From NCBI RefSeq assembly GCF_056712565.1, contig NZ_CM160072.1: a DNA stretch of 64,000 bases; one strand, given 5' to 3'. Below the pieces are notes generated by a model. It saw nothing but the letters and a program-made list of their open reading frames with translations, ran no database searches and had not been told where the DNA came from. The translations under genes and the position numbers were made by a program. Within the stretch, counting starts at the first letter, position 1. Every line of letters starts with the position of its first letter. Below, piece by piece: positions 41,617-43,828 of the stretch.

Positions 41617-43199
41617 TGGCAATGGGAACAGGCTACTTTCTGGTCAGGGGGGACAAAACCACCTGCGGCGGGAAGATTATTGAAGGCGCGGACGACCATA
41701 CGATCATGGGTATCCCACAGGCACGGGATATGGATCGGGTCACCTGCGGCAGATATCCGGGAATGTTTATTATTGTGGGCGGCGTGCCGGAAACGGATAT
41801 TCACGGCAGGCTGATGGCGGGATCTCTGGACAACCAGAGCAGTTGCCCGTGCAAGGCGCGGTTTATTGCGTCAATGATGGATGATACCTATGAAACGGAT
41901 GACGGGGGAAGCGAGCCGGAACAACATGCGCAGTCGGCGAGGAAAAATCTGACTTCCGGTAATCCAGATAAAAAATACAGTCATCAGATAAAACTTCAAC
42001 ATGGCGAAAATAATGTTAGTGTACAGGACATACCTTATGTCTTTATCCTAAATAATAACATGTCTCTCAGTGGCAAGACTAATCAGGATGGCGAGACTGA
42101 GAGAATATATACAGATACTGCTCAAAAGGTAATTGCACTTACAGGAAAACTGGCTGATTCCTGGCTGAAAAGAGGGAAAAATTTTGGTTCATTAAAAGAA
42201 ATTGACAATAGAAAGATCGAATTAACAACTGAAGAGAATGAACCTGTAAAATATGTCAACTGGATTAATAGGCGTGATTATATTGTGATTGTGGCGGCCA
42301 GAACAGCCGTAACAAACTGGATAGGAATGGAGGACTCAAAAGGAAATCAGTATCGATTTATAAATTGTGGATTAGAACAATTACAACAGTTTCCTCCAGC
42401 CAGTAAACAGGATTCCAGTTCGCAGCGAATTATGGTGGTTTTTTCGCTTGGGTATACGCAAAAAGATATTGATAGAATTAATGATTATACTAAAGCGCAC
42501 GATGGAAGAATTATCTATGTCAAGAATAAGGATGAATTAGTTTCATTCCTGAATCAACGCAAAGAAAAAGGAAGAGTGATTAAGGAACTGGTTATTCTGT
42601 GCCACGGTGTTATTAAAACAGCTTCATATCATTATCATCATGAAGACAAGGATATTGAAAAAAATGGAATGTTTAAACATGAAGATATTGCAGCAGTTCA
42701 CGAGTCAGTTTTTGATTATGATGCCCATGTGACAACATATGCCTGTCGGGCCGGTATCTCAGATGGTGATAAAGATTTTTCCGGGAAGGATGATGCAGGG
42801 CAAAAGGACAGCCCGGCACAGAAAATGGCTGATAACTGGGATGTCATGGTTAAAGCGTTTGAGATGAGATCGGACTACAGTCTGGCTTATGGGACAGGCA
42901 AGGAAATTAAAGAAGCTCAGGAATATGGTAGTGTGGTAGAAAAATATAAAAAAGATATAGATATGTATAATAAAGAAAAAGCAAAGGGGAATACTGAAGT
43001 TTCCCCTCCAGTGAAACCAGAGGGATATGATGAGAAATCAAAACGCCATGCAGATGTTACTACCAGAGACAAAAATGAAAAGTCTGGCGGAGGACCAATA
43101 GCTCCTAATGGTGCATGGCATATGCCAAGAACAGGGGATTCGCCGAAAGGGCTGAAAAGCGGGTTACAGGATTATCAGCCTGAGGAGTGGGTTCAATAA
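41616..43199 (+). CDS. PAAR-domain protein fused to an approx. 400-aa C-terminal domain of unknown function (putative toxin)
   Basis: 527 aa; N-terminus RGDKTTCGGKIIEG...RVTCGRYPG...SSCPCKARFIA is PAAR-like and GC-rich; AT-rich from about nt 41960; no motif I can assign. Confidence 0.6.
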   Translation: MAMGTGYFLVRGDKTTCGGKIIEGADDHTIMGIPQARDMDRVTCGRYPGMFIIVGGVPETDIHGRLMAGSLDNQSSCPCKARFIASMMDDTYETDDGGSEPEQHAQSARKNLTSGNPDKKYSHQIKLQHGENNVSVQDIPYVFILNNNMSLSGKTNQDGETERIYTDTAQKVIALTGKLADSWLKRGKNFGSLKEIDNRKIELTTEENEPVKYVNWINRRDYIVIVAARTAVTNWIGMEDSKGNQYRFINCGLEQLQQFPPASKQDSSSQRIMVVFSLGYTQKDIDRINDYTKAHDGRIIYVKNKDELVSFLNQRKEKGRVIKELVILCHGVIKTASYHYHHEDKDIEKNGMFKHEDIAAVHESVFDYDAHVTTYACRAGISDGDKDFSGKDDAGQKDSPAQKMADNWDVMVKAFEMRSDYSLAYGTGKEIKEAQEYGSVVEKYKKDIDMYNKEKAKGNTEVSPPVKPEGYDEKSKRHADVTTRDKNEKSGGGPIAPNGAWHMPRTGDSPKGLKSGLQDYQPEEWVQ

Positions 43200-43828
43200 T
43201 GTTCTTAAAAAGAAAATGGTATTACGCAGTGACGACATCTGTCGTCATTACTTTGTGTGGTGGAGGATATTATATGTACAGGCAAGAATATCAGATGGTT
43301 GTCACTGTACCAACTGCTGACGCGAACGTTCCCAACTGGCCAAATAAAAGGATACAGTTTGATACCAGCGAATGGCTACAGCAACTTCAATATATTAAAA
43401 TAGATGATCATTATATATTGAATACTCAATATACTCCAATTGCTAATTTGGATGACTTTGGTATTACATTAAAATTACAGAACGCATTAAATGGGTCGGA
43501 TAAAAGACTTCCTGCACTATATGGCCTTGCTGAGATGGATGCTCAGAAATTTAAAGACCTGATGCGCGGTAAAATTAAATGTGAATATCTGAGGACGACA
43601 TTTGATGCGGAAACATTAAAGCCTGTCAATGATTATTTCCTTATTTCTTTTACTTATAAAGATAAGTGGTATGAATTTGAGACAGAAAGAAAAATATCTA
43701 AAACAAGTGATGATGGGTATTTTTTGTGGGCATTTGATAATACTGTCCACGAAGCAGGCTATTGGCATAACACAGATCCGGCTGCGTATTCCTATAGAGA
43801 TTACCAGAATGGTAAGGCTGTGAAATAA
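43199..43828 (+). CDS. hypothetical exported or membrane-anchored protein, candidate immunity protein
   Basis: 209 aa from ATG 43199, overlapping the upstream stop (taATG); N-terminal hydrophobic segment YYAVTTSVVITLCGGGYY; AT-rich. Confidence 0.5.
   Translation: MFLKRKWYYAVTTSVVITLCGGGYYMYRQEYQMVVTVPTADANVPNWPNKRIQFDTSEWLQQLQYIKIDDHYILNTQYTPIANLDDFGITLKLQNALNGSDKRLPALYGLAEMDAQKFKDLMRGKIKCEYLRTTFDAETLKPVNDYFLISFTYKDKWYEFETERKISKTSDDGYFLWAFDNTVHEAGYWHNTDPAAYSYRDYQNGKAVK

Follow-up and report, generated by a model that had tools for sequence, protein, structure and literature searches.

The immunity proteins of type VI secretion systems (T6SSs) that face the periplasm include Tai/Tsi1, which serve against the Tae amidases, Tli against the Tle lipases, TsiV2 against VasX and Sip6 against Ssp6. 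We describe here an open reading frame (ORF) that resembles the genes of such proteins, in a 64,000-nucleotide stretch of Escherichia coli DNA (RefSeq assembly GCF_056712565.1, contig NZ_CM160072.1) that we call the window and from whose first letter positions are counted, except where another locus or contig is named. Like them the ORF is small, lies directly downstream of an effector gene on the same strand and has an apparent N-terminal export or anchor signal, and like them it varies together with its effector and in some loci occurs in tandem copies. The ORF, at positions 43199-43828, follows the gene of a PAAR-linked toxin at 41616-43199, and we think it very likely that it encodes the cognate immunity protein of that toxin, a membrane-inserted, periplasm-facing protein that would block the toxin's caspase-like protease domain. 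In kind the pair is ordinary, a T6SS effector together with an immunity protein that is exported.

Caspase-like folds have only recently been described among T6SS effectors, and for the effectors concerned, Tce1 and Tce2, no target and no antibacterial activity has been seen. Tce1 (PA0256, DUF4347) and Tce2 belong to the H3-T6SS of Pseudomonas aeruginosa, where Tce1 is cargo of the Hcp3 lumen (PMC13323088). The present toxin is unlike Tce1 in being fused to a PAAR domain, or in its relatives being carried as VgrG/DUF4123 cargo, and it differs from both Tce proteins, for which no immunity gene is reported, in having a strictly linked partner that bears an apparent export signal. It also resembles the "Tox-Caspase" domains (Zhang et al. 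2012, PMC3482391) in being a caspase-like His/Cys domain at the C-terminus of a polymorphic toxin, in a hypervariable cassette with a downstream partner. The delivery systems listed in the passages of that survey consulted here are type VII secretion, PVC, TcdB/TcaC and type II secretion, with no mention there of T6SS. Many such domains are processing peptidases rather than the toxic module.

The gene pair and its overlap

The putative immunity gene extends on the + strand from ATG 43199 to TAA 43826-43828 (630 nt, 209 aa). The toxin gene that precedes it on the same strand ends in TAA at 43197-43199, and the partner's ATG begins on the last base of that stop codon. The resulting TAATG stop/start overlap (43197-43201), in which the two genes have one base in common, recurs as the same overlap or as an abutment in homologous loci and suggests translational coupling of the toxin and immunity genes; GAGGAG lies 11 nt upstream of ATG 43199. 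The UniProt entry for this protein from strain UTI89 (Q1R7K9) starts slightly further upstream, at GTG 43187, to give a 213-aa "putative exported protein" that includes the N-terminal segment discussed below.

Toxin and partner are linked in both directions

A forward scan with a profile of the toxin over one genome per species found 17 loci with close toxin homologues, and in all 16 that could be evaluated a member of the immunity family lies directly downstream on the same strand and overlaps or abuts the toxin stop (in the seventeenth the contig ends 94 nt past the toxin). The reverse check gave the same arrangement, in that four of four divergent immunity-family members (five loci) lie directly after a toxin-family ORF or a 3' fragment of one. 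The linkage is the same whether the toxin is PAAR-fused or is VgrG/DUF4123 cargo; it is therefore independent of delivery mode and, because the cargo loci already have a separate adaptor gene, it argues against an adaptor role for the partner. Two to three tandem copies of the immunity gene are present in loci L012, L017, L022, L024 and L050 of our collection, which are from Yersinia, Xenorhabdus, Serratia and one metagenomic contig, and tandem amplification is typical of immunity genes.

The two proteins have also diverged together. Over 19 loci the pairwise identity matrices of toxin and partner are correlated with r=0.93 (Mantel 0/5000), and the mean identities, 59% among toxins and 43% among partners, indicate that the partner diverges faster. 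Among 5,426 complete E. coli genomes the two genes are found or missing together, the partner in 158 and the C-terminal region of the toxin in 159, all at 99% identity or above, and there are no orphan copies. A first-pass annotation of the window, made from its letters alone, had noted a 209-aa AT-rich ORF overlapping the toxin stop and had proposed that it is the cognate immunity protein of the PAAR toxin; the coding extent and overlap given above and the ORF's 36% GC content agree with the former, and the two-way synteny, co-occurrence and co-divergence argue strongly for the latter.

Some individual loci depart from the simple two-gene arrangement. L050 has one toxin followed by three tandem immunity paralogues (2130-3990). 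In L004 (6350-7926) the toxin gene is split into ORFs of 369 and 156 aa, by a frameshift or as a pseudogene, and the downstream immunity gene is intact. L048 and L049 (about 555-960) have only a C-terminal toxin fragment upstream of a full immunity gene, and these may be orphan modules. E. coli FDAARGOS_1261 has a deletion, at about 1458305-1459012 of NZ_CP069441.1, through which the C-terminal region of the toxin (counted from window position 42000) breaks off after ~320 nt and continues into sequence beyond a downstream DUF1240 gene (below); the 3' part of the toxin gene, the immunity gene and the orphan module that includes the DUF1240 gene are lost together.

Spread of the immunity family and database matches

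A word-indexed protein search reached only close relatives of the ORF product, and the rest of its very small family was reached when 1.84 billion representative proteins were searched exhaustively with a profile, which gave only 39 representatives (50% clustering). These are from the Enterobacterales (Escherichia, Phytobacter, Salmonella, Klebsiella, Yersinia, Serratia, Erwinia, Xenorhabdus and Photorhabdus) and from a few bacteria outside that order (Acinetobacter, Neisseria and Conservatibacter). The ORF has no Pfam match even at E<=10, and 27 family members have none at E<=0.001. Searches of NCBIfam and PADLOC with the ORF gave no match, comparison with profile hidden Markov models of the named immunity families (Pfam Imm*/Tsi/Tai/Tli, NCBIfam, DUF1240) gave no significant one, and a PDB sequence search gave no meaningful one; the PDB matches at E=0.015-0.19, to a cellulose-binding domain and to Bud21, are chance. 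The toxin family and the immunity family are both uncharacterised.

The N-terminal segment and predicted topology

The predicted protein begins MFLKRKWYYAVTTSVVITLCGGGYYMY, in which three basic residues are followed by 21 uncharged ones. This uncharged/hydrophobic segment, WYYAVTTSVVITLCGGGYYMY, occupies residues 7-27 after the KRK (43217-43279, + strand); it was defined by hydropathy and flank charges and is conserved across 27 family members. In the structure model residues 2-30 form one unbroken helix. The uncharged stretch is 21-22 residues long in five of the seven homologues examined, and in the Enterobacter ludwigii protein it is 17 residues, up to an Arg. When seven sequences were tested for flank charge, the N-terminal flank had a net charge of +2 to +5; the C-terminal flank had one of -1 to -3 in six of them, the exception being the second Yersinia paralogue with +1. 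Under the positive-inside rule a basic N-terminal flank gives an N-in/C-out orientation, and the flank charges therefore predict that the remaining ~180 residues are periplasmic. The segment is thus predicted to be a signal-anchor (N-in/C-out) or a signal peptide, and the part beyond it, a predicted periplasmic alpha/beta domain of ~180 aa (43289-43825, + strand), is presumed to be the toxin-binding part.

A lipoprotein was considered and rejected, because the candidate motif, I-T-L-C, has Leu at -1 and so does not match the lipobox [LVI][ASTVI][GAS]C, and because its Cys is not conserved, being Ser in Phytobacter and related alleles and missing from most family members. The DNA that encodes the segment also contains an inverted repeat with a 9-bp stem (AGTGACGACATCTGTCGTCATT, 43228-43249), which lies between two candidate start codons (below); it is absent from the L005 and L009 alleles and is probably incidental.

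A protease-fold domain in the toxin

The toxin gene (41616-43199, + strand) encodes 527 aa that comprise a PAAR domain (~41649-41819; Pfam PAAR_motif at residues 12-68, E=1.1e-08), a linker/beta-sandwich and a C-terminal toxin region. The PAAR motif is the sole part that Pfam recognises, and RefSeq labels the product "PAAR domain-containing protein". The structure model of the C-terminal region has the caspase-hemoglobinase alpha/beta/alpha fold that defines clan CD (caspase/legumain/gingipain-like) cysteine proteases, with its core encoded at 42270-42872 on the + strand. The candidate catalytic residues are His330 (CAC, 42603-42605), which is followed by Gly331 (...LVILCHG...), and Cys377 (TGT, 42744-42746; ...TYACRAG...), and this His-Gly and Cys are invariant in 60 homologues. 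In the model H330-G331 comes after the strand at model residues 201-209 and C377 (Y-A-C-R) after that at 247-255, so that each member of the dyad would lie where a core beta-strand ends C-terminally, the placement known from clan CD enzymes. We regard the clan CD fold as a confident assignment from the model, and by its fold and conserved dyad the domain would be an active protease.

The solved structure closest to the toxin model is that of P. aeruginosa Tce1 (DUF4347; PDB 9qpe). The toxin in the window has no Pfam match to DUF4347 (PF14252), and nine of the 60 homologues match it at E<=0.001 (best 3.6e-06); a profile of the toxin family matched nothing among the PDB sequences, that of Tce1 included. 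Kinship with Tce1 and clan CD thus appears, from the model, to be mainly at the level of the fold. Three other identifications were discarded, the PDB matches to TRPV3 (E about 0.006) and a match to NADH-quinone oxidoreductase as chance, and Serratia Ssp4, whose immunity protein is Sip4, on the ground that this effector forms pores.

Residues ~120-527 of the toxin have many homologues at 42-88% identity, and these are of three forms: PAAR fusions in E. coli, Phytobacter and Salmonella, free proteins of ~440 aa encoded after VgrG and a DUF4123 adaptor in Enterobacter, Yersinia, Xenorhabdus and others, and one VgrG fusion.

Distant relatives and the likely compartment of action

The toxin also has more distant relatives, in Syntrophaceae, Psychrobacter, Chryseobacterium, other Bacteroidota and Symbiopectobacterium. 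The partners encoded downstream of these belong mostly to unrelated families, and of the 14 such loci checked 13 have a partner that starts with a signal peptide, a lipobox or a membrane helix; the Syntrophaceae partner, a weak member of the present immunity family, is among the 14. The toxin-domain relatives of the Bacteroidota loci L032, L034, L036, L038, L041 and L043, of Psychrobacter (L035, L037), of Chryseobacterium (L039, L040) and of L033 are at 21-28% identity. The small unrelated proteins that follow such relatives are multi-pass membrane proteins in Bacteroidota and signal-peptide proteins in Psychrobacter and Symbiopectobacterium, and two of the three Chryseobacterium loci (L039, L040) have lipoprotein partners. 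Such partners suggest several independent immunity solutions, all of them outside the cytoplasm.

The toxin sequence and a Pfam scan of it showed no membrane helices and no prePAAR/Eag-type features, which would fit a delivery that goes no further than the periplasm. From the nature of the partners and these features of the toxin, which are indirect but consistent indications, its target is most likely periplasmic or at the membrane surface. Periplasmic action would also, we infer, explain the apparent harmlessness of the Tce proteins when expressed in E. coli, where no periplasmic targeting is mentioned. Two further proposals of the first-pass annotation are borne out to this extent: its N-terminal hydrophobic anchor or signal corresponds to the KRK and conserved segment described above, which is only moderately hydrophobic in this particular allele, and its periplasm-facing orientation is supported by that segment, by the flank charges and by the signal-bearing partners of the distant toxin relatives.

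Points against the assignment and alternative explanations

A number of observations weigh against a periplasm-facing cognate immunity protein. In the E. coli allele the segment contains TTS and GGG and is weakly hydrophobic, with a Kyte-Doolittle value of 0.94 over 19 aa as compared with 1.6-2.9 in homologues. RefSeq (PGAP) places the start of the gene at ATG 43274, which gives a 184-aa product that leaves the hydrophobic segment out, and the Shine-Dalgarno sequence there is stronger than that of the long-form start; ATG 43274 is possibly a secondary start from which a second, cytoplasmic isoform would be made. Correlated divergence of toxin and partner can arise by simple co-inheritance. The literature searched contained no paper on this toxin-partner pair. 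For Tce1 and Tce2 no immunity gene was found, no toxicity was seen in E. coli and eukaryotic targets were proposed, and the paper that describes them mentions no periplasmic targeting (PMC13323088).

One alternative takes the 184-aa protein from ATG 43274 as the true product. Immunity would then be cytoplasmic, and the toxin would be neutralised either ahead of its export or within the cytoplasm of the target cell. In favour of this are the choice made by PGAP, the GGAGGA (43262-43267, + strand) that lies 6 nt upstream of the ATG (together 43262-43276), and several database gene calls that likewise start at MYRQ... The GGAGGA, however, is no more than the Gly-Gly codons of a conserved Gly-Gly-Gly motif, and Met26, the residue at the internal start, is not conserved across the family, Salmonella having Leu at that position and other homologues also lacking Met. 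The upstream ATG, in contrast, is found again, overlapping the toxin stop, in loci of E. coli, Phytobacter, Salmonella, Yersinia and Xenorhabdus, and this overlap is the conserved arrangement. Both TAATG and the open frame are retained in the Phytobacter allele, which is 76% identical, and in a third allele of 67% identity, and within the 26-codon extension the alleles have five synonymous and seven non-synonymous differences and no stop codon. The non-synonymous changes (T>I, S>F, V>I, T>A and C>S, plus K>Q and Y>C) all keep the segment uncharged and make it more hydrophobic overall. In homologues of 34-49% identity (Salmonella, Yersinia, Enterobacter and Xenorhabdus) the start coincides with the toxin stop or lies only a few bases from it, and basic residues come first and then a hydrophobic stretch; the long form, with basic residues before ~21 uncharged ones, is in frame in every homologue from 20 to 76% identity. 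Because these comparisons favour the long form, the RefSeq start at 43274 is probably a misannotation that hides the export signal, here corrected, and we hold a wholly cytoplasmic product to be quite improbable.

Given the long form, the protein might still be a soluble periplasmic immunity protein whose segment is a Sec signal peptide, cleaved after a run of small residues (...TLC-G-G↓G...). The parts of such a peptide can be recognised, as KRK would be its n-region, the 12 residues YAVTTSVVITLC (Kyte-Doolittle about 1.75) its h-region and the small residues CGGG its c-region, and many homologues have S/G/A-G-G at the would-be cleavage place. The -3/-1 rule is nonetheless broken in several members (...LGF|Y, ...LGL|W, ...YGM|Y, ...ITR|V), and the length of the uncharged stretch and the unbroken helix of the model (above) also speak against cleavage. 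We favour an uncleaved anchor because L, F, M, I or R occupies the would-be -1 position in several members, and from these features judge the anchor to be somewhat the more probable of the two forms of the segment; the soluble periplasmic protein as a whole is an unlikely but serious alternative. A rather different suggestion is that the ORF is not an immunity gene and encodes an accessory factor of the toxin (a chaperone, secretion adaptor, activator or co-effector). An adaptor would show equally tight linkage to the toxin, but the known T6SS adaptors (DUF4123, Eag/DUF1795 and DUF2169) are cytoplasmic and are encoded upstream, the cargo versions of the toxin already have a separate upstream DUF4123 gene, and the ORF is kept when the toxin is PAAR-fused; the N-terminal export or anchor signal and the tandem amplification, moreover, are typical of immunity genes. 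An accessory factor is accordingly the least probable of the explanations considered here, and a cognate, anchored immunity protein is the one we prefer.

A proposed mechanism and its significance

If the preferred assignment is correct, toxin and immunity protein would be made from one transcript with translation coupled through TAATG, and the VgrG spike would carry the PAAR-toxin into neighbouring cells; there its caspase-like domain would cleave a periplasmic or membrane-exposed substrate. The immunity protein would be inserted in the inner membrane through its basic and hydrophobic N-terminus in the N-in/C-out orientation and would stay anchored there or, less likely, be cleaved and released; the ~180-aa alpha/beta domain would face the periplasm either way. 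Kin cells would be protected when this tethered domain binds the protease that sister cells inject through the T6SS, perhaps over its His/Cys site.

The toxin belongs to a class of caspase-like effectors that has only lately been recognised, and the literature that we found reports no immunity protein for this class. The partner may represent the first family of immunity proteins against a T6SS protease toxin of clan CD (caspase-like, Tce1/DUF4347-type). Its export signal and the signal-bearing partners of the distant toxin relatives would then mean that the effector class is an antibacterial protease acting in the periplasm or at the membrane surface, unlike the anti-eukaryotic role proposed for Tce1 and Tce2. 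We also compare the immunity domain with protease inhibitors of cystatin and NTF2-like fold, and it may be a cystatin-like active-site blocker tethered to the inner membrane. This wider interpretation we put forward tentatively, as an attractive possibility that falls just short of being favoured. The linked partner with its export signal leads to the hypothesis of a toxin whose site of action is the periplasm and for which a dedicated inhibitor exists, and the pair offers a tractable system, in E. coli, for identifying the substrate.

Genomic setting and neighbouring genes

The host is an ST95-type extraintestinal E. coli, and the ORF lies within its T6SS cluster. The GC fraction is 0.36 in the ORF, 0.39 in the C-terminal part of the toxin gene and 0.60 in tssM-tssA upstream, so that toxin and partner form a 36-39% GC cassette surrounded by a 60% GC cluster. 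Within E. coli the pair is confined to the ST95-type extraintestinal lineage, to which UTI89, APEC O1, NU14 and ATCC 11775 belong, and it occupies the variable toxin slot of the T6SS of that lineage; it may therefore contribute to strain-against-strain competition in the gut or urinary tract. Around the immunity gene, scans for promoters and terminators gave nothing above the shuffled expectation.

Immediately beyond the pair, at 43874-44034 on the + strand, is the 3' remnant of a different, displaced PAAR toxin gene, recognised by its match, 92% in DNA and seen also at the protein level, to the last part of a PAAR toxin that is intact in other strains. The remnant is part of the history of the locus and lies outside the toxin-partner pair. 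It is followed at 44067-44528 (+ strand) by an orphan gene annotated DUF1240 for a multi-pass membrane protein; the same gene lies directly after the intact PAAR toxin in NZ_CP098214, and its product is assigned as the immunity partner of that displaced toxin. The T6SS cluster also has, further upstream at ~32616-35512, an esterase/lipase-family gene, several hypothetical ORFs, a Tli4-family immunity gene and a second, stand-alone PAAR gene of 87 aa; together these are probably a second effector-immunity module.

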